From positions 192,001 through 256,000 of the forward strand of contig CAWBHS010000049.1 in NCBI GenBank assembly GCA_963788655.1: 64,000 nucleotides of DNA, in the 5' to 3' direction. The DNA is from an uncultured Verrucomicrobiae bacterium. GTDB taxonomy: Bacteria; Verrucomicrobiota; Verrucomicrobiia; Limisphaerales; JAFGQR01. Of the stretch, positions 6,001 to 31,690 are shown piece by piece; position 1 is the first letter of the stretch; each line of letters starts with the position of its first letter. A program made the translations under genes and the position numbers. A model generated the notes under the pieces. That model saw nothing but the letters and a program-made list of their open reading frames with translations, was not told where the DNA came from and searched no databases.

Positions 6001-9000
6001 GGCACTAATTCCAGACCCGGCCGTCAGCTATACCAGTGCCAACAGCACCGGCAGCCTCCAATTTGCGCCGCAACTCAATCAAAACGGTGCAGCCGTCATC
6101 ACGGTTACCGTGGATGATGGCGGCAGTTCGAATAACGTGGCGGTGCGCAACTTCACCGTCACCGTAAACAACGTGAACGATCTGCCGGTCGTCGCGGGGT
6201 TGACCAACGTCACAATTGACGAAGACACAGCCACGAGCGCGCTGCCGTTTACCGTGGGAGATTTGGAAACGGCGGCGGAAGACCTGGTGCTCTCGGGCCG
6301 GTCTTCCAATCCAGTGCTCGTCCCCGACAATGCCATCGTTTTTGGCGGCAGCGGCAGCAATCGCACGGTCACGGTCACTCCGTTGCCGGACGCTTTCGGT
6401 TTAGTCACCATTACCGCGGTCGCCACCGACACCGGCGGCGGAGAAGGCACCGCCAGTTTTCAACTTACGATTAATCCGATCAACGACTTGCCGGCGATGT
6501 CTTCGATTGCGGACCAGACCACCCTGGAAGATGCACCGATTGACATACCGTTCCTGCTATATGATCCGGAGACACCGCCGGAAAGCATCGTGATCATCGC
6601 CACGCCGGCCAATCAAACCCTGGTGCCGGTGGCGAATCTCAGTTTCGAGGCTACCAGTCGCAGCAATTGGGTGATGCATGTGCAGCCGGCGGCCGACCAA
6701 AATGGAGACAGCCGTATCACCGTAAGCGCAATCGATTCGGACAACGTGGTGGTGCGCTCCACGTTCACCCTGACGGTTCTTCCAGTGAATGATCCGCCGA
6801 GCTTTGACCCGATCAGCGACGTGCTGATCGAAGAAGACGCGCCGGAGCAAGTGGTCACCATTAGCGGTATCAACGCCGGACCTGCCGACGAGGATCAACA
6901 CCTGACATTCAACGTCCTCTCCGGCAAACCGGACATCGTCCCCAATCCGGTGTTAAATTACACCGCCTTGTCCACCACGGCTGAATTACGGTTCACCCCC
7001 ATGCCGAACACCAACGGCCTGGTTAGCATCACGGTGACCGCTATTGACCGTGAGGCGACGAATAATGTCTTCAGCCGCGTCTTCCGCGTGGTGATTGGCA
7101 ACGTGGACGATCCTCCCGTCATTGTCGGCCCGGACGACCAATCAATGGATGAAGACTCCAGTCGTACGGTTGCCTTCCAAGTCAATGACTTTGACACGCC
7201 GTTGGACCAACTGGTGGTGACCGCCGAGTCGTCCAATCTCGGCCTGATTTCCGACGCGAGCCTGGTGCTGGGCGGGACGGGCACTGATCGCACCGTCATG
7301 TTGGCACCCACCGCCAATCAGTTCGGCGCCAGCACGATCACCCTGACAGTCGCCGAGGCCACCAACACGATCTCCACAAGCTTCGTCGTCACCGTGCAAC
7401 CGGTCAACGATTCGCCCACGTTGCAACCGCTCGCGGACGTGAACATTCCCGAAGACGCCGGCCCGCAAATGGTGACCTTGACGGGCGTCACCGCCGGCCC
7501 GGACAACGAAGCGGACCCGCTCACCGTGACGGTCACCTCCAGCAATCCAGCGCTGATTCCCGATCCGTTGGTGACGTACAACAGCCCGGCTTCGACCGGC
7601 ACGTTGGTCTTTGAAACCGCCGAGAATGCCAGCGGTACCGCCCAACTCACAGTGACCGTTGATGACGGCCAGAACGCGAACCACACAGTCAGCCGAAGCT
7701 TCACGGTGACGGTCCAATCGGTAAACGATTTGCCGGTGATCTCGGGAATCGGCGACCAGTTGATTGAGGAAGACACCACCACCGGTGTCCTGCCGTTCGT
7801 GATTGGCGACGTGGAAACCACCGCGGAGAATTTGACGGTCGTCAGCCATTCTTCGAATCCCGATTTGGTGCCGGAAGCCAACGTTATGCTCGGCGGCACC
7901 GCCGGCAATCGCACGGTAACCGTCACTCCGGTCGCCAACCAATCTGGCGCCACGACCATCACCTTGACTGTCACCGATGCCGACCACGGCAGCAGCAGCC
8001 TGAGTTTCCAATTGACCGTGACCAGCGTCGAGTCATTGCCATTGATCTCGGATGTGGACAACCAAACGACGGCGGAAGACACGCCGCTCTTGGTGAACTT
8101 CACGGTCAGCGATGAAGAAACGCCCGCCGAAGAACTGACTGTCAGCGGCTTCTCTTCGAATCCCGTCCTGGTGCCGGTAGCGAATCTGAGCTTTGGCGGC
8201 AGCGGCGAAAACCGCACCGTGACCATTTCTCCAGCCGCCAATCAAACAGGGCGCGGCAACTATTACCCTTGTGGTCACCGACGCCAGCGGCAACGTGGCC
8301 AGCGACCGGTTTGAGTTGACGGTGACGCCGGTCAACGATCCGCCGACGCTGGATCCGATCAGCGATTTGACACTCAATCAAAACAGCAAGCCGCAAACGC
8401 TGTTGCTCACGGGAATTAGTGCGGGTGCCGCCAATGAGCACCAGACCTTGACCGTAACCGCCCTGTCCAGCGATCCGGCGGTGATTCCGAATCCCACGCT
8501 CGATTATTCCAGCCCCGCCAGCTTTGCGCTGTTGACGCTGGCGCCGGCGCCCAATGCCACCGGCACTGCCACTATTACGGTGACCGTGGACGATGGGGAA
8601 GCCACCGACCACCAGGTCGTGCAAACATTTACGGTCACGGTCAATGCGGTGAACGAACTGCCCACGATTTCAACCATCGACGACCAAATCACTCTGCAGG
8701 ACACGGCCCGAATGGTTTCGTTCGTGATTGGCGATCTTGAAACCGCGGCGGACGATTTGATTCTCAGCGCCGCTTCCTCCGATGTCGCCGTGATTCCGAA
8801 CGAGAACATTGTCTTCGACGGCACCGGCAGCGAGCGCACCGTCACCCTGACTCCGGCCGCCGGACAAGTCGGCATGACCACGATCAGCGTTACCGTGGCC
8901 GACACTGATGGCGGCAGCACGACCGGCGAATTTTTGTTGGTTGTGGAACGGGTGAATGGCGCGCCGACCATTTCCTCCATTGCCGACACGAGCACCGTGG

Positions 9001-12000
9001 AAAACTTTCAGGCCACGCTGAATTTCACCATCAACGACGACGACACGCCGGCGGACAGCCTGCTCCTGAGCGGTGAATCCTCCAACCCGGCGCTGGTCCC
9101 GAACGCGAATCTGAGCTTCGGCGGCAGCGGCAGCGATCGCACCATCACCCTCGTTTCCACTGCCCACCAATCCGGCAGCGCTACGATCACGCTCTCCGTC
9201 TTGGACGACCGCGGTTTGATGGCCAGCACTTCCTTTGAGCTGACCGTGACGCCCACCAATGATCCGCCCAGCCTCACGCATCTGCCCGATGTCACGATGC
9301 GCGCCAATACGTCGCTCTCTCTGCCTATTGCCGTGGCGGACCTGGAAACTCCGGCGGCGGACTTGAGTCTGTCGGGTGAATCGTCGGCACCGGCCTTGAT
9401 TGCGGATGCCAACTTGGTCTTCGGCGGCAGCGGCGCCAATCGCAACCTCACGCTGACGCCCATCGCCAATCAAACCGGCTCTGCCGACATCACCGTGACC
9501 GTGACCGACGGCAACGGTGGCAGCGCGACGGATAAATTCAAACTGACCGTGATCGCCAGTGGCACACCGCCACGCATCACGTTGAATCCGCAAAGCCAGA
9601 CGAACTGGGCTGGCGGGCAGGTCTTGTTCAACGTGCTGGCCACCGGCACTCCGCCGGTGCGTTACCAATGGCGTTTTAACGGCATTGCCCTTCCCGGCCA
9701 GACTAACGCCACGCTCGTGTTGACCCACCTCCAGGGTGGACAGTCCGGACAGTACGACGCAGTAGCCAGCGATGAGTTTGGTTCGGCCACCAGCGAATCG
9801 GCTACGCTGACGGTCCATGTGCCACCCTATATCGTTTCGCAACCGGTGAGCCAGAACCGCGCCATTGGCAGCAACGCCGAATTTGACGTCATTGCCGGGG
9901 GCGATGAACCGTTGACCTATCAATGGTGGTTCAACGGCACCGCGCTCTCGGGTGCTACCGGCGCCAGTCTCACGGTAGCCAATGCGCAGGCCGTCAACGA
10001 AGGATCCTACTTTGTCGTTATCACCAACCGCTATGGCACCGTCACGAGCCACACGGCCACCCTGACCCTGGGCGTACCGCCGTCCATCGTCACGGCGCCC
10101 GCGAGTTTGATCGTCACCCAGGATCACGATGCGACCTTCAGCATGACGGCGACCGGCGATGAACCTTTGACCTATCGTTGGTTCTTCGACCAGACATTGC
10201 TCGTCGAGACCTCGGTGCCCAATTACACCGTTCCCAACGCGCAACCTGTCCAGGCTGGCGATTACCATGTCGTGGTGGCCAACCATATTGCTGCCGTCAC
10301 CAGTTCCGTCGCGACCTTGACCGTCCTGGTGCCACCGTCCATCAGCCTCCAACCGGCCAGCCAATCCGTGGCGGAGGGGACCGACTTCATTTTGAACGTG
10401 ACTGCCCGAGGCACGCCCCCGCTCACTTACCAGTGGCAATTGGCGGGAGCAAATCTCGCCGACGATGGTCGCGTCACCGGAACCACTACCGGCAGTTTGT
10501 CCGTGTCGGGTGCCGTCGCCGAGGATGCGGGTTCTTACATCGTCGTGGTGAGCAATGGCGCGGGCGCGGTCACGAGTGTGGTGGCCATTGTCTCCGTCAT
10601 TACCACGCCCAGTGTTACCTGTCCACCGGCCAAGACCGTTGAGTGTGGTGAACCGTGGGACTTCGACGTGCCGCTCTTCAGTGATGAAGTGGTCTTTGAC
10701 TCGCTGGTGTTTGATAATTCCGTCAATGACTCGATGGTGCGTTTCAATCCCGGCACCAACGAGGTGGGCGATGAAATCATCCTCGATGGCGCTGCGCGTT
10801 ACTTGACCAGTTTCATCTTCGAATACTGGGGCACCAACAGCTCGCAGGCCGATTTCGAAGGGACCATCCAAGCACGGGTCCGGTTCTACGGCCATGACGG
10901 GCCGCTGACCGATTCGGGATTTCCCAGTCCGGGAACGGTGTTGTACGACAGCGGCTCCTTTGCCGTTCATGCCACCACCCGCTCGACGTTGATCATTCAG
11001 GATTTCCAACTGGATGCCGTGGTGCCGTTGACCGATCCGGTGCCCGACAATTTTACCTGGTCAGTGCAGTTCACCGGCATGTCCGCCAATGACGCGGTGG
11101 GTTTGGATCTTTATTCGCCGCCAGTCGTGGGGCTGGACTTCACCGATTACTGGGAACGCGACGAAAGCGGCTGGCAGTTGAAGACGAACGAGGTTGCGGC
11201 GATGGACTTCTCGGCCCGCATCGATGCGGCGCATAGTCCCGTCACCGTGACGGTCGTTGACACCGTCACCAATGCCACTTGTGGCACCACCTTCCTGGCC
11301 ACCCGTACCTGGCAAATGACCGATCCCAGCGGCCTCGACAATCTGTGTGCGCAGACCGTGACCGTGCTGGATCAGACGCCGCCGGCCATCCTTTGCGTCC
11401 CGGACAAAACCGTGGCTTGCGGCGAATCCTGGGACTTTGACGCGCCCACCGCGATGGACACCTGTGGCACCGCGACCATTGCCGAAATGGGCACGGCGAC
11501 CAATGCGGTCTCCAACGAAGGAAGGTCGATAACCCGCACCTGGAGCGCGTCCGACGATTGTGGCAATACGGCCACCTGCGCCCAAACCGTCACGTTGCGG
11601 ATCCCGCCAGTCATCACGGCGCAACCCGCCGACGTTACGGCGGCCGCGGGAGCTGACGTTGCCTTGAGCATGACGGCCTCTGGTACCGCACCGTTGAGTT
11701 ATCAATGGTATTTCAACGACACGACGGAAATCGCCGGCGCCACCGGGCCAGTGTTGACGTTGACATCCGTGCCATCGGCGAAAGTCGGCAATTACACCGT
11801 CGCCGTGGCCAACGAATGCGGCTCGGTTACCAGTGCGGTAGCGACACTGACCGTCACGGTGCCCCCGACCATTGGGCAACAGCCGAACAGTCAGATTGTC
11901 ACTCAAGGCCAAACCGCCACGTTGGAAGTCATTGCCGCCGGTAACGAACCGCTCGACTATCAGTGGTGGTTCAACGGCAACCTCCTGCCCGGCGCCACCA

Positions 12001-15000
12001 GCGCGACGTTGAACATCGCGAACGTCCAAGCCGCCAACGCCGGTGCTTATGTCGTCACGGTCGCCAATGCCGAGGGCTTCGTCGTCAGCGACACGGTGTC
12101 ACTTGAAGTGGGCGTGCCGCCGACCATTACCGTCCAACCGCGCAGCCAGGCGGCTATAGCAGGCGATATTGTGCGCTTCTCCGTGACCGCCTCTGGAACC
12201 GCACCGTTAACTTATCAATGGCAATTCAACGCAGTGGACATCCCCAATGCAACCAGCGCCAGCCTCACGCTCTACAACGTGCAACTTGCGGACGCCGGCA
12301 ATTACTCGGTGCAAGTCCAGAATGCCTTTGGCACTGTGGCAAGCAGCTCCGCCTTGCTCACCGTGACGGGCGATACCACCGGAGGCGATGCCACGCTGGT
12401 CGAAGCTGGCGCCGTGTGGAAATACCGTGATACCGGCGTGGACTTGGGGACCGCCTGGCGCGGCACCGGCTACGACGACACCACTTGGTCCGCCGGACCC
12501 GCGCAATTGGGTTACGGCGACGGCGATGAAGCGACCGTCGTGGACTACGGCCCGGACGCCAACAACAAATACATCACCACCTATTTCCGCCGCACATTCG
12601 TGGTCGATAATCCCGCCCAGTTCACTGGTCTTGAGTTTGCACTGCTCCGCGACGACGGAGCGGTGGTTTACCTCAACGGCACCGAAGTCTTCCGCAGCAA
12701 CATGCCGGGCGGAACCATCAACGCCGACACCCTGGCCTCCAGCCTGATTGCCCCGGCGAATGAGAATGATTGGGTAACCAATTTGGTCGATCCGGGTTCG
12801 TTGGTTGCCGGCCTCAATTTGCTCGCGGTCGAATTGCACCAGGGCAGTGCTAACAATCCGGACCTCAGCTTTGATCTGCGGTTGCGGGGCTTGGGCACCG
12901 GGCCGGCGACGCCGCTGTCGCTGTCGGCCATTCCAAATCAAACCATGCTGGAAGACACGCCGCTCCAGGTCCGGTTCACCCTCGCCGGTTCCAGAATCGA
13001 TCCAGCCCTGTTGACGCTTAGCGCCACCTCCGGCAACGCCGCACTGGTGGCCAACAGCAATCTGTTGTTTGACGGCAACGGCACCAACCGCACGCTGACG
13101 ATCGTGCCTGCCGCTGACCAATGGGGAACGGCGCAAATCGACTTGAGCGTCATGATGGCGTGGACACGGCGAACGTCAGCTTCACCGTGACGGTGAATTC
13201 GGTCAACGATGTCCCCACGCTGGATTGGTTGCCCGACCAGGCAATGCACTTCAAAGAAGGCGGTCGGGAGGTCGATCTTGCTGGCATTGGCACCGGCGCC
13301 GCCAACGAAAACCAGCAATTGGAATTGACGGCCTTCTCGACCGACCAAGCGCGGCTCAAGGTCGCCAACTTCAGTTACAGCAGTCCTCAGCCTACGGGCC
13401 TCTTCAAGATTGATCCCAACGATCAAGCGTTCGGAATTTACACGGTAACGGTCCTCATTACCGAAAATCAGCCCACCACCAACAATGTGGTCAGCCGACA
13501 ATTCGATGTCTATGTCCGCGATCAAGCCAACTCGGTCCCGACCATTTCGGCGCTGGCCAATCAAACCATTGCCGAAGACACCTCGACCGTTCCGGTAGTG
13601 TTCACCGTCGGCGACCAACAGACGGCGGCCAGCCAATTGATGCTGGTGGGCAAGTCGTCAAATCACGGCTTGGTGGCCGATGACCACATCGTGTTTGGCG
13701 GCACTGGCGCCAATCGCACCGTGACGGTCACGCCGCTGGCGAACCAATCCGGCACGGCCATCATCAGTGTGTTGGTGGTGGATGAAGGATTCGGCATGGC
13801 TTTACGCACCTTCCAACTTACGGTGAATCCCGTGAACGACGCGCCGACAATCTCGCCCATTCCCGGCGCAAACCGCCCCCATCGGCTTCCCCACGCGCGT
13901 CATTCCCTTCACGGTTGGCGACCTCGAAACCGACGAGACCCGCCTGGTCGTGACCGCCAGTTCCTCGAATCCGACGCTGGTGCCCAACGCCAACGTGCAA
14001 TTGGGCGGCAGCGGCCCCGACCGGGCCTTGCGGGTGGTACCGGCGTTGCGAGAGGCAGGCTCCGCGCTCATCACGTTGACGGTGAACGATGGCAGCCTGA
14101 ACAGTCAGGAGTCCTTTGAAGTGGCCTTCCTGCCGCTGGATGAAGTGCCGGTTACGGCAATTCCGGTGATCGCGCCAATTGCCAATCAAGCCGTCCTCGA
14201 AGACACCCCAATCACGATCGCGGTCACAGTCAGCGACGCGGACACCGATCCGGCGCTACTCACGGTCGCCGGGCATTCGGACAATCCCGCGCTGGTGCCC
14301 GCCGGTAACATTTCCTTCAGTGGCTCGGGCGCCAGCCGCACGCTGACGATTGTGCCGGCCACCAATGAATTTGGCACCGCGCGAATTTTCCTGACCGTCA
14401 GCGACGGTGTGAACCAGGGCCGCGGCAACTTCTTGCTGACGGTCAACCCGGTCAATGACTTCCCGACTGTGGATCCGCTGCCGGATATCGCCATGGATTC
14501 CCGGGAGGCCGATCGGTTGGTCAGCGTAACCGGCATCACCGCGGGAGCGCCGAATGAATATTCAACGCTCAATTTTACGGCGACTTCAAGCGTCCCGGCG
14601 ATGGTCCAAACCAAGAATTTCCACTACACGAGTCCGCAAAGTTACGCTGACTTCAAAATCAATCCGGCCGACAAAGCCCTGGGCATCTATCCCATTACCC
14701 TGGTTGTCTGGGAAAACTCACCGGCCAGCAATAATCTCGTGCTACAATCGTTTGACCTCTACGTGCGAGACCGCAACAACTCGGCGCCAACCATCGCGTT
14801 GCTGCCGAATCAGATCATTGCGGAGGACACCTCCACCGGCCCAATCCCCTTCACCGTGGGCGACACGGAGTCCGCGGCCAACACGTTGATTTGCACGGGC
14901 AAGTCTTCCAATCCAGCGCTGGTCCCCAATGGCAACATCGTCTTTGGCGGCAGTGGCGCCAGCCGGACGGTGACCGTCACTCCCTTGCCGCATCAGTTCG

Positions 15001-18000
15001 GCCGGGCCACCATCACCGTCCTGGTCGTCGATCCGGGCTTCGGCATGACGTCCACCACCTTCCTGCTCACCGTGACGCCCGTGAACAGCGCGCCGTTCAT
15101 TTCGAATCTCGTCGATCGGACGGTGATGGAAAACGAAGCGACGGCGACGTTGCCCTTCACCGTTGGCGATACCGAAACCTCGGCGGACCGACTTGTGGTG
15201 AGCGCGACTTCGTCCAATCCGACCCTGGTGCCGGCGGCGAACATTCAACTGGGCGGTACCGGTGCCAGCAGGGCTCTGCGCGTGCAACCCGTGTCCCAAC
15301 AAAGCGGCAGCGCGACGATCACGGTGACCGTCAGTGACGGCGTGGCCACCGCGCAGGACAGCTTCGTCCTGACCGTTACCCCGGTGGAAGACGCGCCGGC
15401 CATTTCCAGCATCGCGGACCAAACGACCGACGAAGACACGCCCACGGCTCCCATCGCGTTTGTGGTCAGCGATTTTGAAACGCCCGCGGCTAATCTGGCC
15501 TTGAGTGCGTTTTCCTCTGACGCGGGCTTGGTGCCGGCGGCCAACATTGTCTTCGGCGGCAGCGGTTCGAGCCGGACCGTGACCGTAACGCCGGCGCCCG
15601 ACCAGTCCGGCAACGTGCAGCTCACCATCACTGTGACCGACGAAGATGGCATGTCCGCCAGCAGCAGTTTCGTGCTGACGGTCAACCCGATAAACGATCC
15701 ACCCACCCTTGATCCGCTGGCAGACCTGGAACTAAACGTCGGTGCCGGCGAACAGACCATTGCCTTGACCGGCATCAGTTCAGGCGGCGCCAGCGAAGCT
15801 CAAATCCTGACGGTTGCGGTGGTTTCCAGTAATCCGTCACTCACTTCGCCGCCCACGGTGGAATATGCTCCGGGTGACACGTCCGGTACCTTGCGCTTTA
15901 CCCCGGCGCCCGACGCGGAAGGGACAGCCGTGCTGACGGTGACGGTCAACGACGGACAGGCTGCCAACCACTCCATCAGCCAGATCTTCAGCGTGACGAT
16001 CAGCCAATTGGTCGCCATTTCGGACGTTGGCAATCAGGTGATGGACGAGGACGCCATCGGCACGATTCCGTTTACCGTGAACAACGGGATGGGCAATCCA
16101 GACGACCTGACGGTCACGGCGGTAGCTTCAAATCCGAACCTGCTGGCGGCAACGCAGATTGTCCTGGGAGGTTCCGGCGCCGATCGCACCCTCACCCTGG
16201 CTCCGGCTCACAACCAATACGGTTACACCACCCTCACTTTGACCGCGACCGATTTGAACGGTTACTCCGCCAGCCGCAGTTTCCTGCTCCTGGTCAATCC
16301 GCTCAACGACGCGCCAACGCTCGATCCCATACCGGATTTGGGGCTCGCCGAAGACGCCGGGCAGCAGATCGTCCAGTTGACCGGCATTGGCTCCGGTGCA
16401 TCCAATGAAAACCAGCCGCTGGTCGTCCGCGCCGTTTCCAGCAATCCCGCGTTGGTGCCGCATCCCACGGTGAACTACACGAGTCCGAATGCGTTCGGCT
16501 TCCTGACGTTTGTCCCGGCAGCAGACGTCACCGGCACAGCCACCATCACAGTGACGGTCAACGATCTTCAATCGCAGAACAATCTGACGGCGGTGCAGTT
16601 CGAAGTCACCGTCACCGGCGAAAACGATCCGCCCGTCATTTCGGAAATTGTGGACCAGGTGACGTCCGAAGACACCGTCAAGGTCGTCGCTTTCAATGTC
16701 CACGATTCGGATAATGCCGCCACTGACTTGACGGTAGCCGCGGTCTCGGTCAACACCGAACTGGTGCCGAACGCCAACCTGACCATCACCGGCACCGACG
16801 CCAACCGCTTCCTGCAAATTACACCAGCCCCAAATCAGACCGGCACGGCGGCCATTGCCGTCACTGTTACTGACCCGGCCGGAGCCACAGCGAGTGCTCA
16901 GTTCAACTTAACTGTGGAAGCCAATGGTGACCTACCCGTCATTTCTGCCATTCCTGACCAAACCATTGCGGAAGACGCGGTCGCCGGACCGCTGGATTTC
17001 ACCGTCAGTGACGTGGAGACCGCGACTGAAAACCTGGTCCTCACTGGCCATTCGTTGAATCCTCGCCTGGTGCCCGATGAAAATATCGTCTTCGGCGGCG
17101 TTGGCGGCAGTCGGACCGTGACCGTCACCCCCGCTGCCGACGAGTCGGGCTCGACCTTGATCACTGTGACCGTGACCGACGAATCGGGCAGCGCGGCTAG
17201 TTCAAGTTTTCTGCTCACTGTTTCGCCGGTAAATGATCCGCCGACGATCGAGGGTCCGACCGATCAAACCATGGACGAAGATACGACTGCCGTCGTCGAA
17301 TTTACCGTGAACGATTCCGAAACTCCGGCGGAGGTGTTGCTGGTCACGGTTACCTCCTCGAATCCATCCCTCGTTCCTGAACCGCAGTTGGTTCTCGGCG
17401 GCACCGGCGCCCTTCGCACGGTCAGCATCTCGCCCTTGCCCGACCAATTCGGCTCGGCCACGATTACGCTCACCGTCAAGGATGCCGCGGGCACGACAGC
17501 TCAGGCTTCCTTCGCGCTTACGGTCAACAACCGTTCCGATCTGCCCCTGATCGTGACCCAGCCACAAGCTCAGACCACGACCCTGGGCGGCACGGCCACG
17601 TTTACGGTGACCGCCACTGGTGCCGCGAACCTGCAATACCAATGGCGCCACCAGGGCGTGGAATTGCCGGGCCAAACGGCCGCTACATTGGTGTTGAACA
17701 ACGTTCAAGCGGGTGATGCGGGCGAGTATTCGGTAATCGTCACCAGCGTGGAAGGTTCGGTGACCAGCGACTCGGCGCAATTGCTGATTCTGGTACGACC
17801 CGAATTGGTGCAGATCACGCACGCGGCCAATACGACCCAGGTTTCCTTCACAACCGAGACGGGACACGCTTATACCGTCGAATACACCACTTCCTTGACG
17901 AATCCGGTGTGGACTCCGCTGAGCAGCGGCGTCGCCAGCAGCCAGCTCATGAGTGTTACCGATCCGGAAGCCGTGGAGACGACGCGGTTCTATCGGGTTC

Positions 18001-18011
18001 GGGCTGACTAG
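1..18011 (+). CDS. Giant secreted adhesin-like protein 1 (5' end outside window; >6000 aa when joined): GEVED, DUF11, Ig I-set, proprotein-convertase P-domain, cadherin-like/tandem-95-type repeats, HYR-like repeats, galactose-binding-like domain, C-terminal FYRV domain
   Basis: ORFs 13-4488, 4373-8314, 8271-13190, 13121-14119 and 13950-18011 continue one another mid-repeat across single-base shifts near 4358, 8250, 13152 and 13865. Three 'ARFRFST...DGEVEDY' GEVED motifs, DUF11 'DLAV...LTYT.TV.N.GPS.ATGV' units, Ig 'L.YQW...G.Y.V.V.N..G' units and 'NDPPT...ED' repeats are present. Ends ...TTRFYRVRAD*. Confidence 0.9.
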
Positions 18012-18285: not shown

Positions 18286-21200
18286 ATGAAAAAACGTACG
18301 ATGAATCCTCTCGCGAGGCGGCGTGATTCAGCAGGCTTTAAGGTGTTGTCCTTGGTTCTCCTCCTGGCGTGGGCGGCCCATCCCGACCAGGCCAACGCCG
18401 GCACCATCAAACCGACCCCGGTCGCGGTCACCCGAAGCCGGACGGTCCGGTTGAGCACCCTGGAGAAATCGGCGGCCAGCAACTCTCTCAGAACCGTCAC
18501 CCGCGAAACTAAAATGTCTCGCGCCGGCACGCCGCCCAAAGCCCCCCGTCAGCTCTTGAACGCGACTCACCCGGCTGGATCGGTCAGTGGTTTTGCCCCC
18601 AGCAGCGGGGGCCCGGATTTGCCCACGGCAATGAGCTCATTGGAATTGCCGCTGACTCCGTTTCCGTCCGCTTCCTTTGAGGCGTTGCCGGATGACGGCA
18701 CGGCCTACGTGCCGGACATCGCGGCCGCGGTGGGCCCCGCGCATTTAATGGTTGCGTTAAACTCCCAAGTACGGATCCAGAACCGGCAAGGCCAGCCGCT
18801 CGGTCCGGTTTCGCTCGACGATTTCTGGGCCGGCTTGGGCAATCCTTCCTGCTCCCAGCCGCGGCTGCTATACGATCCTTATGGGCAACGTTGGGTCTTC
18901 ATTGCCAATGCCAATCCCGGCGAAACCAACGCCGGTCTGGTGGTGGCGGTCAGTCAGACCACCGATCCCACCGGCAACTGGTATCAACACTTCATTTCCA
19001 CGACCACCCCGGTGGATGTCTATGCCGACTGGCCCACCCTGGGATTTAACAAGGACTGGATTGCCGTGCAGGCCAACATGTTTTACCGGGCGACTGACGA
19101 GTTCTATTCCTCTTACGTTTATGCGTTGAACAAGACCAACCTATACGCGGGCCACGACGGTCAACCGCTACGTTTCGCCCTGCTGGAGACTCCGGACGAC
19201 TATCCAGGCGGTTCCCAAATGCCGGCTTACACCTATGACGAAGACTCGGACAAACTCTATTTTGTGCAGTCCGCGTTTGGGGATGATGGCACGGGTTTTG
19301 GTGCGCTGCGCATTTTCAGCCTCGAAGGCTCCCCTCCCAACGCTCCCGTTTTTAACACCACTGACAGCCGGGGCGATCTGGGCCCCGTGGCGTACAGTTC
19401 AGATACTTGGAGCGAAACGCCGCCAACGGGAGTGGATAATTTCGCTCCCCAGCTGGATCTTCCACAAAACTCTCCACTGGCGACGATGATCGCATTCAAA
19501 AGGTCATCTTACCGGGCCAATACACTCTGGGCGGTTCACACCGTTTATGTGCCGGCCGGTGGCGCCCCCGATCGGGCGATCGTCCAGTGGTGGACGCTGA
19601 CCCCGACCCTCGGGGATGTCTTGGAACAAGGCCGCGTGGACGCCGGTCCAAACGATCGCTTCTTTACCTTTCCGAGCATAGCCGTAAATCGAGATTTCGA
19701 TTTGATGATCGGTTATTCGCGGTTCGACCGATCCCATTATCCCAGCGCGGGCTACGTGTTCAGCGGAGGAGGGGATCCGCCCGGTTCAACCCGGGGTGAC
19801 CACACCATCCGCTATGGCGAGGCCCCGTACGCGGTTACCAATTCTTCCGGCGTGAACCTGTGGGGCACCTACAGTGCGACCGTTCTCGATCCCCTGAACG
19901 ACACCGAATTCTGGACGGTGCAGGAATTCGCTGCCCTTCCCGATGCCGACGGTGATCATTGGAAAACGTGGTGGGCGCGCATCTCCCCGGACGTGGATCT
20001 GGCCGTCACCATTCAGGATTCGCCCGATCCTGTGTATGCCGGCGCCGAACTGACCTATACCATCATCGTAACCAATACCCTCCCACGACAATCCCCCGGC
20101 GTGGTGGTCACGCACACCTGTCCCCCAATTCCACATTCGTTTCGGCTGCGGTGCCAGGCGGCAGTTACACCGTTGCCAATGGCGTGGTCACCTGCAACGT
20201 GGGCCTGCTGGGCGATCTCGACGAGCGCGAAATCACCGTGGTGATCCGTCCCGCAACGCAGGGTCAAATTACCAGTACCGTCACCGTGTCAGCAAACGGA
20301 GCGGACCTGAATTCCGACGACAACTCCGCCTCGGCCATAACCACCGTGCAACCATCCGCCGACCTCGCTGTGTCCGTGGTTGATTCGCCGGACCCGGTGG
20401 CCGTCGGCCAGGACCTCACTTACACGGTGACGGTTACCAATCGCGGCCCTGCCATCGCCACCGGAGTGACGCTCACGGACACGCTCCCCGCCAACGCCAC
20501 CTATGTGTCCAGCGTCGCGAGTCAAGGGGCGTGCAGCCGAAACGGCAATCTCGTGACTTGCAATCTCGGCAATATCAACAATGGCGCACTGGCCACGGTG
20601 ACCATCGTGGTGCGTCCCACCGCCTTGGGAACGCTTAACAATCAGGCGCAAGTCACCGCCACCTCGATGGATCTGGTTGCGAGCAACAACACCGCCACCA
20701 GCACCACGCAGGTCAATTCCCCGCCCACCATTTCGTCCATCGGACCGCGGACCATCAACGAGGACACGGCCCTCAGTGCCGTGCCGTTTACCGTGGGCGA
20801 CTCGGAAACCCCCGCCAGCGCGCTCGTCGTTACCGCGTTCTCCTCGAATCCACTTTTGGTTCCCAACGGCAATTTGGGGGTGGGTGGTAGTAGTGCCAAT
20901 CGCACCTTGACGGCGACGCCATTGCCAAACCAATTCGGCACCACCACGATTTCGGTCGTGGTCACCGATACCGGCGGAGCTACCGCCACCAACAGTTTTC
21001 TATTGACCGTCATGTCGGTGAACGACCTGCCAACCATTACCGACATCGTCAACCAAACCATTGATGAAGACACCACCTTGGCTCCGGTGGCGTTTGTGGT
21101 GGGCGACGTCGAAACCGCTCCGGGCAGCTTGTTTGTCTCGGCCACGTCGTCGGATACTACGCTGGTCCCCAACGCGAACATCACCCTGACCGTCAACGGC

Positions 21201-24200
21201 GCCAACCGCACGATCAGCATTTTGCCCGCGTCGAATCGCAACGGCACCACCGTGATCACGGTGACTGTGTTCGACGGCACTGCGGCCAACAATGATACCT
21301 TTGTCCTCACCGTCCGGCCGGTAAATGATCCCCCCACCATCTCATCTCTCTCCAATCGCACCGTCAATGAAGACACGCCCACGGGTAATATCTCGTTTAC
21401 CATTTCCGATCCCGAGACCGCTGCGGGCAACCTGATTTTGACCGGCACTTCGAGCAACAAGACCTTGGTGCCGGATAACCAGATTGTCTTCGGTGGGAGC
21501 GGCGGCAACCGCACCGTCAATGTTATCCCCGCCAGCAATGAATCGGGCACCACCGTGATCACGTTGAGTGTCCGCGACCCGGAGGGCTTATCGACCAATG
21601 CCACGTTCACGCTCAACGTCACCGCTGTGAACGATCCGCCGACGATCGACAACCTCGTCAATCGCATCATCAACGAAGACGGCGGCCAGCAAACCATCAA
21701 CTTGTCCGGTATTTCCAGCGGTGCGGCCAATGAACACCAAACCCTCACCGTCACCGCGAGCTCGAGCAATCCTGGCCTGATTCCCAATCCCGCCGTCAGT
21801 TATGCCAGCCCCAACGCGACCGGCACGTTGACTTTCACCCCGACTGCGAATCTCTACGGCAGCGCCATCATCACTGTTACCGTCCAGGACGGCGGGGCGC
21901 TGAACGGTTCAACGGTCAAGACCTTCACGGTGACCGTGGTGCCGGTCAACGATCCGCCAACATTGAACACGATTGCCGATGTGAACCTCCTGGAGGACGC
22001 GGGCGCTCAAGCGGTTCCTTTCAACGGCGTCAGTTCCGGCGCGTCCAACGAATCGCAAACGTTGAATGTGACCGCGACTTCCAGCGATCCCACCATCATC
22101 CCGCATCCCAATGTCGTCTTCCAATCACCCAACAGCTCCGGCGTATCGAGTTTCACCCCGGTGGCCAATGCTTTTGGCACCGTAACCATTACGGTGACGG
22201 TGAATGATCAGGGAGCTTCCAACAATGTGGCCACCCAGACATTTCACGTCACCGTGGCGCCGGTCAACGATTTCCCCACGTTGACCGCCCTGGGCAATGT
22301 CACAGTGGACGAAGATAGCGGCGAAGACACGGTCAATCTGTCCGGGATCACCAGTGGTGCCTTGAACGAGAATCAAACCCTGACCGTCACCGCCACGTCG
22401 GGTAACTTCGGTCTGATTCCGTCGCCGACCGTGGTTTATGTCAGCCCCGGGGCCGCCGGCAGCCTGAAGTTCACCCCGGCACTCAACCAATCCGGCACCG
22501 CGACCATCACCGTTACGGTCAACGACAACGGCGCCTCCAACAACCTGGTCACTCGCAACTTCACCGTCACGGTGAATCCGGTCAACGATCCGCCGACGCT
22601 CAATCCGATTGCCGACGTCATTATCGCCGAAGACTCGGGCACGCGCCTGGTGCAATTCAATGGTGTCTCCAGCGGTGCCCCTAACGAAAGCCAGACCTTG
22701 AACGTTACGGCCACCTCGAGCAATCCCGCCATCATCCCCGATCCCGCAGTGTCCTACACCAGCCCGAATGCCAATGGCACCCTCTCGTTCGCTCCCCGCC
22801 CCAATACCAGCGGGATGGTGACCATCACGGTAACCGTCAATGATGGCGGCACGGCCCATAATCTTTTTAGTCGCTCGTTCACGGTGACGGTCAGCAACGT
22901 CAACGATCCGCCCACCATTACCAGCGTTCCCGATCAAACGATCGACGAGGACACTTCCACAGCGGCTTTGCCGGTGACGATCGGCGACCAGGAAACCCCA
23001 GCCAGCGCGCTGACATTTATTGCCAGTTCCTCCAACGAAGAATTGATCAGCAGCCAGGACATTCTGCTCCAGGGTTCCGGCAGCAACCGGACCGTCACCG
23101 TCCGCCCCCTGACCAACCAGTTCGGGTTCGCCACTGTTTCCCTGTTGGTCTTTGATGCTGGCGGCGCCTACAATTTCACCGCCTTCAACGTGACCGTTCT
23201 GCCGGTCAACGACCTGCCCACCATCAGTTCATTGGCCGACCAAACTGTTGCCGAAGGTGAGTCCGCCGGCCCCCTGGCCCTGACTGTGAGTGACGTGGAA
23301 ACCCCGGTGGGTAACTTGACGCTCAGCGGCACTGCGGCCAATCCGACATTAGTGCCTTCCGCCAACATCACCTTCACCGGCAGCGGCGCCAACCGGTTGG
23401 TGACCATCCGGCCCGCGGCCAACCAGTTCGGGGTCACCACGGTCACCCTCCGGGTCAACGACGGCTTCGACACGGTCGGCACGATGTTTACGCTGACCGT
23501 CAAAGGCGTTAATGTGCCCCCCACGATCACCAGCCTCGCCAATCAAACGACGGACGAAGATGTGCCGACCAACCCGTTAGGCTTCACCATCGGTGATCGA
23601 GAAACGCCGGCGACCGACTTGACCCTCAAGGCCAACTCTTCGAATCCCACGCTTATCCCCTCGAGCGGCATCGTGTTTGGCGGCTCGGGCAGCAACCGCA
23701 CCATTACGATCAAACCCGCCACCAACCAATTCGGTTCCGCCACGATTATCCTGAGCGTCGAAGACAACGAACCGGTCTGGACTTCCGTCACCAACATTCC
23801 CAACATCAACGGGAATCAGCAGTACGTTACCGTGACGGCCTCCAAGCGTATGCAAGTATTTCGGCTGGCCTCCACGGTCGGCGCTGCCTCGCCCCCGCGG
23901 CTGAGCATCCAACCAAATGGATCCGACCTCAGAATTTCGTGGCCGTATCCGGCAAGTGGCTGGGTGCTCGAAACGGCTCGCACCGTCGGCGCTCACAACA
24001 CGACCAAGTTCCAGGTGACGGTTAATCCGATCAACGACCTGCCGGTCATCACCGTCCCAGCCGCTTTGGCCATCGCTGAAGATGGCGCCACCTCGCTGTT
24101 GCCCTTCACGATTGGTGACGTGGAAACCCCGGCCGCCAATCTGACTGTTGCCGCCGTTTCTTCCAATCCCACTCTGGTTCCGGCCGGCGGCATTGCGGTG

Positions 24201-27200
24201 TCCGGTTCCGGCAGCAACCGCACCGTGCGCGTCACTCCCGCCGCCAATCAATTTGGCACGGTCAACATCACCCTAAGCGTCACCGACGGCGAAGGGGCCA
24301 AGACCGACGCGCCGTTCGCGGTTACCGTTTTCCCGGTCAACGATGCGCCAACGCTGAACGCTCTGGTGAATCTGACCATCGACGAAGACGCACCCCAACA
24401 GACCGTCAACTTGGCGGGCATCACCAGTGGCGCCGCCAACGAGGCCCAAACCCTGGTCGTCATCGCCAATTCTAGCAATCCCGCTTTGATCCCCACGCCC
24501 GCGGTGGTTTACACCAGTCCCAATAGCACTGGTTCCCTGCGCTTTACCCCGGCAGCCAATGCCAACGGAACCGCCACGATTACCGTCACCGTCAACGACG
24601 GCGGCACGAGTAACAACCTTGTGACGCGAACGTTCGACGTGACCGTCAATTCCGTCAACGACCTGCCCACCGTCACCAGCATCGCCAATCAGCAAACGTT
24701 GGAAGACACCCCCACCGCTGATCTTCCCTTCACGATTGGCGATGTGGAAACGGCGGCGGCCAACTTGACGGTGACGGCCACTTCGTCGAACACCAGCTTG
24801 ATCCCGCCAAGCGGCATTGTCTTGGGCGGCTCCGGCAGCGCGCACACCGTGAAGTTGATCCCGGCCGCCAATCAATTCGGCACCGCCCAGATCACTATCG
24901 AGGTGACCGATGCGCAAAACGGCAAGAGCAGTACGACGATCCAATTGACCGTCGTGCCCGTAAATGACCCGCCGACGCTGACGGCACCGAGCAACTTCAC
25001 GATTCAGGAGGACGCCGGAGAACAAAGTGTCACCCTGACCGGATTGACCCCCGGGCCGGCCAATGAAACCGGCCCGCTAATCGTAACGGCAACGAACAGC
25101 AACAGCGCGTTACTGACCGGCCTGACGGTGGATTACGCCAATCCCGCCACCAGCGGCACCTTGCATTTCCAAACGGTGACCAACGCGAACGGCACCGCCA
25201 CAATTACCGTTACGGTCAACGACAGTGGCGCCAGCAACAACCTTGTGACGCGCACGTTCACGGTAACCGTAACGCCGGTCAATGACCTGCCCACGATCTC
25301 CAGCCTGGCCGACCAGAGCACGGATGAAGACGTGCCGACACCGGCGATGGCCTTTACCATCGGCGACATCGAAACGGCTGCGAGCGCGCTGACCGTGACC
25401 GGCAGTTCTTCCAACCCCGTCTTGGTTCCCAACAGCGCTATTGTGCTCGGTGGCACCGGTGCCAACCGGACCGTCACCATCCGGCCAGCCACCAACCAAT
25501 TCGGCACGGCAACTATTACTCTGCGCGTGGAAGACGATGAAGGCGACATCGCCACCATGGACTTCGAATTGACTGTTAATTCGGTGAACGACGCACCCGT
25601 AATCACTGCCCCGGCCGATTTGATCATCGCCGAAGACGGCGCGACCTCCCTGCTGCCCGTTACCGTTGGCGACGTGGAAACGTCCGCCGCCAACCTGAAC
25701 GTCAGTGCAGTCTCTTCCAATCCCACCCTGGTGTCCGCTGGCGGCATCGCGTTGTCCGGCTCTGGCGGCAACCGCACCGTCCGGGTCACGCCGGCGGCCA
25801 ACCAATTCGGTACCGCCAATATCACCTTGACCGTCACCGACGGCGATGGCGCCAAGACTGACGCCGCGTTTGCTCTCACGGTTTTCCCGGTCAATGATGT
25901 GCCGACGCTGAACGCTCTGGGGAATCTAATCATCGACGAAGACGCTCCTCAACAGACCGTCAACTTGGCGGTCATCACCAGCGGCGCCGCCAACGAAACT
26001 CAAACCCTGGTCGTGTCCGCCAATTCCAGCAATCCCGCTTTGATCCCCACGCCCGCGGTGGTTTACACCAGTCCCAATAGCACTGGTTCCCTGCGCTTTA
26101 CCCCGCAAGCCAATGCCAACGGAACCGCCACGATTACCGTCACCGTCAATGACGGCGGCACGAGCAACAATATTGTGACGCGAACCTTCGACGTGACTGT
26201 CAACGCGATTAACGATCTGCCCACCATCACTGGCATCGGCAATCAGCAGACGCTGGAAGACACCCCCACCGCCGATCTTCCCTTCACGATTGGCGATGTG
26301 GAAACGGCGGCGGCCAACTTGACGGTGACGGCCACTTCGTCGAACACCAGCTTGATTCCCCAAAGTGGCATTGTCCTGAGCGGCTCCGGTAGCGCGCGCA
26401 CCGTGAAGTTGATCCCGGCCGCCAATCAATTCGGCACCGCCCAGATCACTCTCGAGGTGACCGATGCGCAAAACGGCAAGAGCAGTACGACGGTCCAATT
26501 GACCGTTGTGCCGGTAAACGACCCGCCGACGCTGACAGCTCCCAGCGACCTGACCATCCTGGAAGACGCCGGTCCGCAATCAGTCGCGTTGACTGGTCTG
26601 ACCGTTGGGCCTTCCAATGAAGCCGGCCCGCTAATCGTGACGGCAACCAACAGTAACAGTGCAGTACTGACCGGCCTGACGGTGGATTACTCCAATCCCG
26701 CCACCAGCGGCACCTTGCATTTCCAAACGGTGACCAATGCGAACGGCACCGCCACCATCACCGTCCTCGTCAATGACAGCGGTGCCAGCAACAACATGGT
26801 AACCCGCAGCTTCACGGTAACCGTAACGCCGGTCAACGATCTGCCGACAATCACGGCCATCGCCGACCAGACCACTGACGAAGATGTGTCAACCCCGGCG
26901 TTGGCCTTCACGATCGGTGACGTGGAAACCGCGGCCGGCGCCCTGACGGTTACCGGCAGTTCCTCCAATCCCGACTTGGTGCCGCCCGCCGGCATCGTGC
27001 TCGGCGGCACCAGTGCCAGCCGGACTGTTGTCATTCGCCCGGCGACCAACCAATTCGGCACCACCACAATCACTCTGCGTGTGGAAGACGGCGACAGCGG
27101 CAGCGTTACCACAGACTTCGAACTGACCGTCAATGCCGTCAACGACGCCCCAACGATCACCCAACTGCCCGACCAGGCGACCGACGAAGACAGCCCGAAA

Positions 27201-30200
27201 GCTGTGCCCTTTGCGGTGACCGATGCGGAAACGCCCCTGAACTCGCTGGTGCTTCAAGCGACGTTGTCCGACCAGACTTTGGTGCCCAACGCGAACCTGA
27301 CGTTCAACGGTACCGGTGCCAACCGCATCTTGACCATCACCCCAACCGCCAATCGTCACGGCACCACGACGATCCACTGGCCGTGACAGACGGGGATCAA
27401 GCCACGGCGGACACCACCTTCGTTTTGACCGTCCGGCCGGTTAATGATCCGCCCACTTTGAATGCCATTGCCGACGTGACCATTGACGAAGATTCCGCCA
27501 CGCAGACCGTCAGCTTTTCCGGCGTCGGTTCGGGCGCGCCGGATGAAGTCCAATCCCTGGTGGTCACCGCCACCACGTCCACCCCGGCGTTGGTAAGCGA
27601 TCTGACGGTCACCTATGCCAGTCCGGCGGCCACCGGCATGTTGAGTTTTGTGCCCGTAGCGAATGCCAATGGTCCGGCTTCCATCACGGTTACGGTCAAT
27701 GATGGTGGCGCGACGAACAACACCTTCAGCCGCACGTTTACCGTCCACATCAACTCAATCAATGACCTGCCTTCCATCGCGGACATCGCGGATGTCCAGA
27801 CCACCGAAGACGTGCCGGCCGGGCCGATTCCGCTCACCGTCGCCGATCTGGAAACGCCGCTCGCCAGCCTGGTCGTGACCGGCAGTTCGTCGAATCCCAG
27901 CCTGGTCAACAGCGGCAGTTTCTCGTTTGACCTCAGCGGCGCGAATCCGACCGTCACCATCACCCCGCTGGCCAACCAAAGCGGCCAAACTACTCTGACG
28001 ATCATGGTCACCGACGGCGACAACGCCTCCGCCAGCACCAGTTTTGAACTGACTGTTTTGCCCGCCAACGATGCGCCGACTATCTCGAACATCGCCGACC
28101 AGACCATCCCGGAGGATACCTCGTCGCCGGCCATCGCCTTCACCCTATCCGATCCGGAATCGCCGGCGACGGACTTGGTGGTGTTTGCCAGTTCCGCTGA
28201 TCCGTCGATCCTCCCACCGTCGGGCCTGACCCTGGGCGGCAGCGGTGCCAACCGCACCATCATCCTCACTCCGCTCTCCAATCGCACCGGTGCCGTAACG
28301 GTCACCATTACCGCTGTCGATCCGCAAGGCGCCTGGAGCAGCCGCAGCTTTGGTGTCAATGTGACCGACGTCAATGATGCGCCGGTGATCTCCAGTCTGC
28401 CGGCCCAGACGATTCTCGAAGATACCGCCACCGGGCCATTGAGTGTGGTGGTGGGCGATCTGGAAACCAGCGCCAATGCGCTAGTGGTTACCGGCGCCTC
28501 CTCCAATCCGTCGTTGGTGCCGAACGGCAACATCGTGATCGGCGGCACGGGCCCGAACCGCACCGTGGTGGTCACTCCCGCCGCCAACCAATTCGGCAAT
28601 GCGACCATCACGCTGACCGTCGCCGATGGTCAAAACGGCACCGCCACCAGCCAATTCGTGCTGACCGTGGCCCCGGTCAATGACCTGCCCACGCTTAATC
28701 CGCTCGTGGACATGGCGCTGAATGCCAATGTGGGTCCGCAAACGGTGCTGCTTTCGGGCATCAGCTCCGGCGCGCCGAATGAATCCCAAACCCTGTCCGT
28801 CACCGCGACGTCCAGCAATCCCGGCGTTATCCCGCAACCGACGGTGAATTACACCTCGCCGAACACCGGCGGCAATCTGCAATTCACCCCCGTCCACAAT
28901 GCGGCCGGTTCGGCAACCGTCACTGTGACCGTGAGCGATGGAACCGGCGCCGGCAGCACTGCGTCGCGCACCTTTACCGTCACGGTGTCAGCGCTCAGTG
29001 GCCCACCGACGATTGCGGACATTCCCGATCAAACGACTGACGAAGACACTCCGCTTGCCGTTCCCTTGCTGGTCAATGATTCCGAAACCGATCCCATGAA
29101 CCTCGAAGTGGTCGCGTTTTCTGGAAACACCACCCTGATTCCCAACGACCACATCAGCGTTCACGGCGCGAGCACCAATCGAGTTCTCGTGCTGGAACCG
29201 GCGGCCAATTTGTCCGGCAGCAGCATCATTACGGTGATCGTCAGCGACGGTTCGGAATCCGCCATTCAGACGTTCAATCTCACCGTGCGGCCGGTGAACG
29301 ATCCGCCCACGATCAACCCGATGAATGACGTCGTGCGCACTTCCGGTTTCGGGCTGTTTAGCGTCGGTTTCATCGGGGTCGGTTCCGGTGCCGCCAATGA
29401 ATCGCAGACCACTTCCGTGACGGTTGTCTCCAGCGATCCGAGTCTGGTGCAGGTAAACACGGTCAACTATACCCCCGGCGGCAGCAGCGGTAGTGTCCGG
29501 TTGACCGGCGGGACGAAGTCAACGGGCACCGCGGATATTTCCATCACCGTGGACGATGGCGCTACCGCCAACAACACGACCGTGCGCACCTTTACCATTT
29601 ACGTCATGCCCGCCGCGAATTCGCTTCCGTCCCTCAGCGGGCTGTCCAGCCAAACCATCAACGAGGATACCTCCACCGGCCCAATTCCCTTCACCATCAG
29701 CGACGCGCAGACGCCGGCCGATCAATTAATCCTTTCCGCCGAGTCGCTGGATCCGACGCTCGTGCCGGACGCCAACATCTTCTTCGGCGGCAGCGGGGCC
29801 AACCGCACCGTCACCATTACCCCGGCCCCCAACGAATCGGGCACCGTCACGATCAAGATCAAACTGCGCGATCCGGATAACGGCTACCGGTACTACAGCC
29901 CGGTCGTGCAGGTGAATGCGGTGAATGACCCGCCGTTCATTGCCGCCATCGCCGATCAATTCACGACGCGCGACACCCCCACCGGCCCGATCACCATTGC
30001 CATCGGGGATCTGGAAACGCCGGCAACGGATCTGTCCGTACAAGCCACCTCCTCCAACCCCACGCTGGTGCCCAACGCCAACATTACCTGGGGCGGCAGC
30101 GGCACCAACCGGGCGTTGAAGATCACCCCCGCGTCCGGCCAGATCGGGACGACGACCATCACCGTCACGGTGGGCGATACCGAGTTGAACGCCACCCGGA

Positions 30201-31690
30201 ATTTCAAGCTCACCGTGCAGCCGTCCAGCGCGCTGCCCACCATCTCCGACCTTGGCGACCAAACCACTTACGAAGCCACAGCCACGCCTCCGATTGGGTT
30301 CAGTGTCAGCGATGCGGAAACGCCGGCCGCCGATTTGACGGTGTCCGCCACCTCCTCCGATTCCAATCTGGTGCCACCCGGCGGCTTTGTCTTCGGCGGT
30401 AGCGGGACTTCCCGCACGCTCACCATTACTCCGGCCGCGGGTCAGACCGGCGCCGCCACGATCACGGTAACGGTGCATGACGGCAATGGCGGCACCGCCA
30501 GTGACAGCTTCTTGCTGACGGTCCAACGGGTGAATGTGCCGCCGACCTTGAACCCCGTAGCCGAGCTCGCACTGCGTGAAAATGCCGGGAGCCAAACAAT
30601 TACCCTGAGTGGCGTCGGTCCCGGCGCGGGCGACCAGAATCAAACGGTGTTCATCGTGGCCAGTTCGAGCAATTTCGCCCTCGTGCCCAATCCAGTCGTG
30701 GAATACACGAGCCCGAACGCCACCGCCACCCTCCGGCTCACGCCGGCACCGTATGCGACTGGCACCGCGCAGATCACGGTCACGGTCAATGATGGCCAAC
30801 CGCAGAACAATATCACCACGCGCGTCTTCACGGTGACGGTGATTGCCGCGCCGACCATTACGGTCAATCCGGTGCAAGTAACCGAGGAAGATACAGTGGC
30901 TTCAGCGATTCCATTCGTGGTCAGCGATCCGGTGACGCCCGCGGCCAATCTGACCGTGGCGGCTTCCTCCTCCAATCCCGCTCTGGTGCCCAGTGGGAAC
31001 ATCGTTCTCGGCGGCTCCGGCGCCAATCGCACGATCACCTTGACTCCGCTGGCCAACCAGTATGGCAACACCCGCATCAGCCTCGTGGTTACTGCGGCGG
31101 GCAACGTCCGGGCCACGAACAGTTTCTGGTTGTTGGTCGCGCCGGTGGACGACCTGCCCACGCTCGATCCGTTGGTGGATATTACTGATTACTTGAATGC
31201 GGCCGACATCGTGGTGAACCTCACCGGCGTCGGACCAGGCCCCGGCGACCCCATCCAAACGTTGCGGGTCACCGCCACGTCGGACAATCCGGTGTTCATT
31301 TCGAACCCAGTGGTGAATTACGTCAGCCCGAACAGCACCGGCAGTCTGACCCTGGTGGTGCCAGCCGATACGGCCGGTACCGCGAACATCACCGTGACCG
31401 TCGATGACGGTGAGTTGGTTAGCCACGCGTTTTCGCGGACTTTCACGGTAACCATTGAAAACTTCGTGGCCCCGCCGGAGTTGCGCATCGAACCCCTCGG
31501 GCAGACGGTGAAGCTTTCCTGGCCGTATCCCTCCAGCGGCTACGAATTGGAGCACGTTGTCGGCACGGACAATCCCTGGAACTGGATGCCGATGCCAGGC
31601 ACGCCTGAGGACGATGGCGACCGGAAGTTTCTAATCGTGCCGGCCACCGAACCAATGGAATTGTATCGGCTGTCCCGGCCCGCCCGCTGA
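18286..31690 (+). CDS. Giant secreted adhesin-like protein 2 (about 4470 aa joined): signal peptide, N-terminal beta-propeller-like domain, two DUF11, more than 30 cadherin-like repeats, C-terminal FYRV-type domain
   Basis: ORFs 18286-20244, 19959-27386 and 27383-31690 join across shifts near 20118 and 27374. Signal peptide MKKRT...LVLLLAWAAHPDQANA. N-terminal domain motifs 'PDIAAAVGPAHLMV' and 'WGTYSATVLDP'. Ends ...MELYRLSRPAR*. Confidence 0.9.
24033..27140 (+). repeat. 1554-bp tandem duplication (five repeat domains, 518 aa) inside adhesin 2
   Basis: 24033-25586 matches 25587-27140 at a constant offset of 1554. Example: aatcccgctttgatccccacgcccgcggtggtttacaccagtcccaatagcactgg occurs at both 24477 and 26031. 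Confidence 0.9.

Follow-up and report, generated by a model that had tools for sequence, protein, structure and literature searches.

A probable circularly permuted copy of a C-terminal FN3-like domain nested within a stalk repeat of a giant Verrucomicrobiota adhesin

The 64,000-nucleotide stretch analysed here (the window; positions 192,001 to 256,000 of contig CAWBHS010000049.1 from an uncultured Verrucomicrobiae bacterium of soil type) encodes a giant adhesin whose stalk is made of cadherin-like repeats and whose C-terminus carries a small FN3-like domain, hereafter the tail domain. One of the stalk repeats is interrupted by a 72-amino-acid insert. The evidence presented below makes it probable that this insert is a genuine and selectively maintained copy of the adhesin's own tail domain in circularly permuted form, nested in a hairpin of the stalk repeat. 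An earlier note, made from the letters of the sequence alone, had described both the interruption and the opposite order in which the two halves of the C-terminal domain appear within it.

The insert lies at window positions 23772-23987 and is translated in frame as residues 1272-1343 of the open reading frame (ORF) 19959..27386. It splits one cadherin-like repeat of ~100 aa between ...LSVEDNE and GAHNTTKFQVTV, that is, between the last two strands of that repeat, and the last strand picks up exactly at the point where sibling repeats carry on. A BLAST comparison yielded 37 repeat matches in three large ORFs, of which 32 passed a coverage filter (the host repeat and 31 siblings) and 5 were dropped; all 31 siblings run uninterrupted through the insertion point, as the earlier note had read. 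The host repeat is otherwise intact and lost zero residues at the insertion. For this reason, the arrangement is to be regarded as an insertion into an intact repeat and not as a fusion of two genes. When the host region alone was compared with Pfam, it matched Cadherin_4 at E 0.0016 (19.4 bits, below the cut-off of 25.1) and Big_9 at E 0.27. The base composition of the insert is that of its flanks, and no DNA paralogue of the insert is present in the genome.

The relationship between the insert and the tail domain was examined with sequence and profile searches. Among 101,079 six-frame ORFs of the genome, the best non-self phmmer match of the adhesin's tail domain is the ORF that carries the insert (full-sequence E 1.1e-6), with query residues 34-69 aligned to residues 1270-1305 and query residues 1-37 aligned to residues 1312-1350. 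Hidden Markov models (HMMs) trained without the insert ORF matched it in the same fashion, with profile positions 36-70 falling on residues 1272-1306 (independent E-value 2e-3) and profile positions 2-60 on residues 1313-1370 (independent E-value 3e-7). Iterations 1-3 of the HMM were used; by the 5th iteration the model had drifted and no longer matched either the adhesin's tail domain or the insert. Alignment with hmmalign placed the insert halves on profile positions 1-32 and 36-67, 64 of 70 positions in all, and only about 3 loop positions are missing from the insert, where the loop that follows strand C is cut. On this profile evidence both halves are homologous to the tail domain and stand in reversed order on one chain, which upholds the second observation of the earlier note. 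Taken together, they amount to a complete domain in which every core strand is represented, as judged both from hmmalign and from the recurrence in the insert model of all strands of the native-domain model. In the first part of the insert, strand F reads VFRL where tail domains have FYRL. The insert ORF is the only one in the genome with the halves in reversed order; two other reversed-order pairs had been flagged and were rejected at E of 65 and 4000.

The fold of the insert was predicted with AlphaFold2 from a sequence comprising the insert with 12 and 14 flanking residues and an alignment of 35 rows. Combined MAFFT alignments of the host repeat, its siblings and the half-domain or junction rows were left unused because the short rows fell on the cadherin part. 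The resulting model has a mean predicted local distance difference test score (pLDDT) of 84.1 and a predicted template modelling score (pTM) of 0.66; blocks of 10 residues within the insert score 87-96, those around the linker 89-92 and the flanks about 65. Strands are predicted in the order host strand, C', E, F, A, B, C, host strand, as expected for a permutant, with the strands of the first part at model residues 23-25, 28-34 and 40-46 and those of the second part at 57-61, 64-70 and 76-82. Structural comparison with VIA-align superposed 63-66 residues across both halves (model residues 19..85) on single Ig-like sandwiches at about 3.0 Å with Z of 4-5, and the chains 5wer_C, 3bpo_C, 6wgl_C and 4hh8_A match the insert model and the native-domain model over the same chain ranges. 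The model thus suggests one compact six-stranded beta-sandwich flanked by two host strands.

How could a domain of this kind be accommodated within a hairpin? FN3-type sandwiches have the end of strand F and the start of strand A at one and the same pole, and their strands C and C' are paired in a hairpin. Therefore, the old termini can be bridged by a short linker, and the new termini come to lie side by side. In the insert, the old termini would be closed by the linker while the new termini, at the former hairpin, would adjoin one another and suit insertion into a hairpin. The permuted sandwich would then stick out from the side of the stalk at about 40-45% of the stalk's length, which is about 41-46% of the way along the protein.

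The insert also occurs outside the source genome (G000). In G001, a metagenome-assembled genome of another species of the same genus, it interrupts the orthologous repeat at the same place (E 8e-14, 46% identity; 45% in another alignment), and a search of 1.84 billion protein representatives recovered it with the same junctions in P0007, a 118-aa metagenome protein from ENA with 52-54% identity. The three inserts align without a gap over 72 aa, and their 27 invariant positions include W, VFRL, PPxLxI, ISWP and VLE. These alignments indicate that the permuted arrangement is older than the divergence of at least three lineages. Between G000 and G001, the Nei-Gojobori method gave a nonsynonymous rate (dN) of 0.42 and a synonymous rate (dS) of 1.10 for the insert, compared with 0.35 and 0.80 for the upstream host repeat, which points to purifying selection of a strength similar to that acting on the host repeat. 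The permuted form was not found in further lineages among 40 relatives (39 of the same order and one of the same genus), a 400-genome sample of the phylum and the 1.84 billion representatives, and it is so far confined to one genus-level clade. A homologous-protein search with the region 1262-1355 returned only the query itself at near lengths, and at shorter lengths 0 of 58 candidates scored; the corresponding search with P0007 returned only P0007. The metagenome and genome loci L010-L013 and L015-L017 were set aside as cadherin-type repeats or unrelated matches that contain no insert. A separate feature of the source genome is a 13-nt near-repeat (12 of 13 identical) at window 23873-23885 and 23981-23993, which encodes TVGA twice, once within the linker and once at the insert's 3' junction; this near-repeat is probably due to chance because it is absent from G001 and P0007.

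A further question is where a domain with reversed halves would come from. The search of protein representatives gave 79 matches at E up to 1e-3, which were classified with the tail-domain HMM: 2 are permuted (the gene call of the window and P0007), 60 hold 2-8 copies in normal order, nearly all of them in tandem, 13 hold a single copy and 4 are spurious or empty. The last group consists of P0008, which scored 73 bits through 20 identical repeats at about 2.6 bits each and is a Bacteroidota-type protein by sequence, and of P0017, P0061 and P0064, which are without a real domain match. Tandem tail domains were also found in the relatives G023, G026 and G028 and in one ORF of G000. The 72-aa insert matches the junctions of such arrays end to end at 28-42% identity, running from the second half of one domain through a linker of 4-10 aa into the first half of the next, and its own 7-aa linker has the length of natural inter-domain linkers (32 junctions aligned). 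Near-full-length matches of the insert in G023, G026 and G028 are junctions of this kind, and those in G021, G031 and G036 are single domains in normal order. Weaker near-full-length matches in G021, G026, G028, G031 (twice) and G036 were considered as permutants and rejected as normal-order single or tandem domains; G020 gave no match. In a FastTree phylogeny of 237 domain units over 70 columns, from which weak units and units not spanning the profile were left out, the 3 inserts and 4 tail domains of adhesin orthologs (this adhesin, its G001 ortholog and the ortholog fragments P0025 and P0060) form a clade of 7 with support of 0.98. By this tree, the nearest relatives of the insert are the adhesin's own tail domains. 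The simplest history would begin with tandem duplication of the adhesin's tail domain, giving a junction piece made of the second half of copy n, the natural linker and the first half of copy n+1. This piece would then have landed in the last hairpin of one stalk repeat. Such a history fits the classical duplication route to circular permutation.

What can be held against a maintained, permuted domain? The claim that insert and tail domain share a fold draws on confidence scores, strand order and shared weak matches in the PDB; the best Z of the insert model, 5.2, lies below the typical chance-level best of 7-8; and 32 of the 35 rows of the AlphaFold2 alignment are tandem junctions, which in their own proteins are parts of two different domains. 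Moreover, the dN/dS ratio of the insert of about 0.4 is a rough value because dS is near saturation, and the insert is known from three sequences only, one of them a 118-aa fragment. All of these points count against the interpretation put forward above. One alternative is a tolerated relic, in which a tandem-junction piece sits harmlessly in a surface loop, without folding as a domain and without a role. Occurrence in one clade only would fit a relic, as would a rate of divergence about as high as that of the rest of the protein (45-46% identity versus an average of 49-53%) and an AlphaFold2 alignment that consists largely of junction pieces. However, the positions that all three lineages conserve are those that define the fold of the family, the dN/dS ratio is no higher than that of the host repeat, zero indels have accumulated in 72 aa over three lineages, and AlphaFold2 is confident over the linker and both halves. 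A relic is for these reasons considered improbable.

Another alternative accepts the two halves and questions how they pair. If the short linker kept them open, each could pair with its counterpart in a second adhesin molecule in the manner of a diabody, and the stalks would be zipped together. The linker has only about 7 aa, as between the separate domains of tandem arrays, and a swap of this kind would, by reasoning only, lend a mechanism to the assembly idea of the earlier note. Against it, AlphaFold2 closes the domain within one chain with pLDDT of about 90 in the linker blocks, and a short linker should suffice where the end of F and the start of A share one pole of the sandwich, as is the case in the FN3 fold; we regard domain swapping as very unlikely. 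Finally, the insert could be an artefact of assembly, a chimera or a chance resemblance. The source assembly is an 8.96-Mb draft in 115 contigs that is 86% complete with 5.6% contamination, and both giant genes of the window contain frame breaks. Nevertheless, an independent metagenome-assembled genome of another species and an ENA metagenome protein share the in-frame insert at the same place, which contradicts the misassembly that the earlier note had allowed for, and the HMM E-values of 3e-7 and 2e-3 were obtained with the insert ORF excluded from training, which speaks against chance. An artefact is scarcely credible.

The parent of the insert belongs to a large family. Iterated HMM searches of the six-frame ORFs found about 190 full-length copies of the tail domain in the genome, each of ~70 aa and ending in FYRL or FYRV, with one copy in 188 ORFs and two in one ORF. 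Pfam matches were obtained for 15 of a random 20 carriers and for none of the other 5; the sample consists of multidomain surface-type proteins, and its modules include LTD, PKD, Ig, BACON, NHL, LVIVD, TSP3, PD40 and RCC1. No Pfam-A or NCBIfam model covers the tail domain in the 46 copies searched, for which Pfam gave only weak matches to fn3 (PF00041) in 1 copy (E 0.045) and to Tissue_fac in 2; the adhesin's own tail domain matched 0 Pfam families, the fn3 gathering score being out of reach. A profile of the 46 copies matches FN3 domains of known structure, namely titin Fn3 at E 3e-5 and FN3con at E 1.5e-3 (profile positions 3-71 against residues 16-84 of 100). AlphaFold2, given the 46-copy alignment, modelled the tail domain with pLDDT 92.8 and pTM 0.79 and strands at residues 8-12, 15-21, 28-33, 54-60 and 66-71. 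This model aligns with cytokine-receptor FN3-type domains over 70-74 residues at Z 6.3-7.3 and root-mean-square deviations (rmsd) of 2.6-3.4 Å; the top match is 6nmy_D (Z 7.3, rmsd 2.6 Å, 72 residues aligned), followed by other receptor FN3-type domains at Z 6.3-6.9. With Foldseek, FN3 chains were matched at template modelling (TM) scores of 0.5-0.6, yet with E of only about 0.1, which makes this a moderate match. The models describe the tail domain as a short FN3-like two-sheet sandwich that ends at the FYRL strand.

The 72-aa query has matches in 22 of the 40 relatives at E up to 0.01, and in the 400-genome sample across the phylum half-domain matches were found in one genome only (E up to 0.001). 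In the ESM Atlas the tail domain falls among unnamed Verrucomicrobiota clusters. Because it closes about 190 surface-type proteins, the tail-domain family has the look of a hitherto undescribed module for sorting, anchoring or binding that belongs to one Verrucomicrobiota order. The role of a sorting tag, which the earlier note ascribed to the terminal domain, would follow from position alone (168 of 190 copies lie no more than 10 aa from the stop). In 19 other copies the distance to the stop exceeds 30 aa, and the frequent tandem and occasional internal copies argue against a purely terminal signal.

What would such a module do in the middle of a stalk? Of the interpretation offered in the earlier note, the structural part stands, namely a complete permutant placed between the penultimate and the last strand of the host repeat, with all host residues kept; the docking or assembly role that it went on to propose may apply. 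Our best guess, held at modest odds, is that the mid-stalk knob has retained the tail domain's binding activity, towards whatever target that may be on the cell envelope or on other copies. If it does, that activity needs no free C-terminus, and the internal permuted copy offers a handle on whether the free C-terminus of the tail domain matters. That the knob is a working docking site, either keeping the binding specificity of the tail domain or swapping halves with a second molecule, is unlikely. If it were one, stalks of ~4000 aa would gain a second attachment to the envelope, or be cross-linked to one another, and so form a surface mesh, and the uncurated tail-domain family of ~190 members would act by binding without need of a free C-terminus.

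The system can be compared with several that are better known. Like the FN3 domains of cytokine receptors and titin, the tail domain models as a small two-sheet sandwich that can be superposed on solved FN3 structures; unlike them, it has about 70 aa and appears to lack the last FN3 strand, and in the insert the strands come in permuted order. The C-terminal domains (CTDs) of type IX secretion in Bacteroidota are likewise small beta-sandwiches at the extreme C-terminus of many surface or secreted multidomain proteins. In contrast to these CTDs, the tail domain is often found in tandem arrays of 2-8, is sometimes internal and belongs to another phylum, and none of the 46 tail-domain copies matched the NCBIfam/TIGRFAM models of type IX secretion tails at E up to 0.1. 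Swaposins, C2-domain topologies and some DNA methyltransferases exemplify circular permutation that arose in nature through duplication and truncation. As in those cases, the parent order, a tandem duplicate and a permuted product occur in one family here, and the product corresponds to a tandem junction; the difference is that the permuted unit is nested in the hairpin of another domain and the parent copy still forms the C-terminus of the adhesin itself.

As kinds of event, neither domain nesting nor circular permutation through duplication is new. Full-text literature searches found nothing on the tail-domain family or on a natural permuted and nested FN3 or Ig-like domain. In megabodies, a nanobody is reportedly joined through a beta-turn to a circularly permuted scaffold protein. 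Megabodies share with the insert a permutation that sets the termini side by side and lets a domain be spliced into a beta-hairpin of an Ig-like domain; they differ in being engineered, in the proteins involved and in their purpose. These nanobody grafts (bioRxiv 10.1101/812230) are the nearest analogue found. A natural combination of circular permutation with domain nesting, in which the parent, the presumed tandem intermediate and the product are visible side by side, is rare. It is useful for studying the origin of new domain architectures, mirrors a protein-engineering trick and draws attention to a very large FN3-like C-terminal family of one Verrucomicrobiota order that has no Pfam or NCBIfam model.

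Table 1 Features of the adhesin region, in window coordinates
Feature	Position	Strand	Basis or remark
Host repeat, N-terminal 89 aa up to ...LSVEDNE	23505..23771	+	Repeat alignment
Insert part 1, second half of the domain	23772..23870	+	Profile positions 36-67; conserved W, strand E, strand F
Insert linker, 7 aa (STVGAAS)	23871..23891	+	Joins old C-terminus to old N-terminus
Insert part 2, first half of the domain	23892..23987	+	Profile positions 1-32; PPxLxI, ISWP, VLE; strands A, B, C
Host repeat, last strand (GAHNTTKFQVTVNP)	23988..24029	+	Repeat alignment; AlphaFold2 strand at model residues 89-96
C-terminal FN3-like domain of the adhesin, normal order	31472..31687	+	Closest paralogue of the insert
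Normal-order copy of the family at the C-terminus of the upstream giant adhesin	17790..18008	+	HMM
Giant adhesin gene	18286..31690	+	3 ORF pieces: 18286-20244, 19959-27386, 27383-31690
First frame break in the adhesin gene	20115..20127	+	Single-base; in tblastn, the G001 protein shifts here from frame 1 to frame 3
Second frame break in the adhesin gene	27375..27390	+	1-nt, near 27380; read from the sequence

From its N-terminus, the adhesin comprises a signal-peptide-like start, a region of ~600 aa, DUF11-type repeats, about 40 cadherin-like repeats and the FN3-like domain (Table 1). The stalk repeats are ~100 aa each and of the bacterial cadherin-like or Big_9 kind, and the precomputed Pfam matches of the adhesin gene call P0005 are Big_9, Cadherin_4, Cadherin_5 and DUF11. 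The ortholog in G001 is intact, with 3953 aa in a single ORF, and is collinear at 49-53% identity. At the second frame break the upstream ORF ends in ...TTIHWP before a stop, the downstream ORF opens with VTDGD in mid-repeat, and the G001 ortholog reads through. The statement of the earlier note that the normal-order domain forms the C-terminus of the same protein consequently fails for the ORFs as they stand here, where 27383..31690 is separate, but is correct biologically, the ortholog being one ORF. The upstream giant adhesin gene (window 1-18011) lies in five overlapping same-strand ORFs (1-4488, 4373-8314, 8271-13190, 13121-14119 and 13950-18011). Breaks are dense in both giant genes, which hints at indel errors in the assembly consensus more than at pseudogenes.

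Several repeats of the G000 adhesin are internally duplicated, with near-identical translated blocks at window about 24027-25620 and 25581-27170. The protein is ~510 aa longer than its G001 ortholog, of which residues 2523-3035 align to both ORF pieces. The ~600-aa N-terminal region after the signal peptide (window 18286-20100) is without a Pfam match and is 49% identical to that of the G001 ortholog; it can be taken as a conserved head domain. In G001 an open frame of 4038 aa runs antisense to the entire adhesin gene (L009 7333-19449, - strand), and the adhesins of the window are overlain by many antisense ORFs of 200-380 aa; these open frames are probably a by-product of repeat composition rather than genes.

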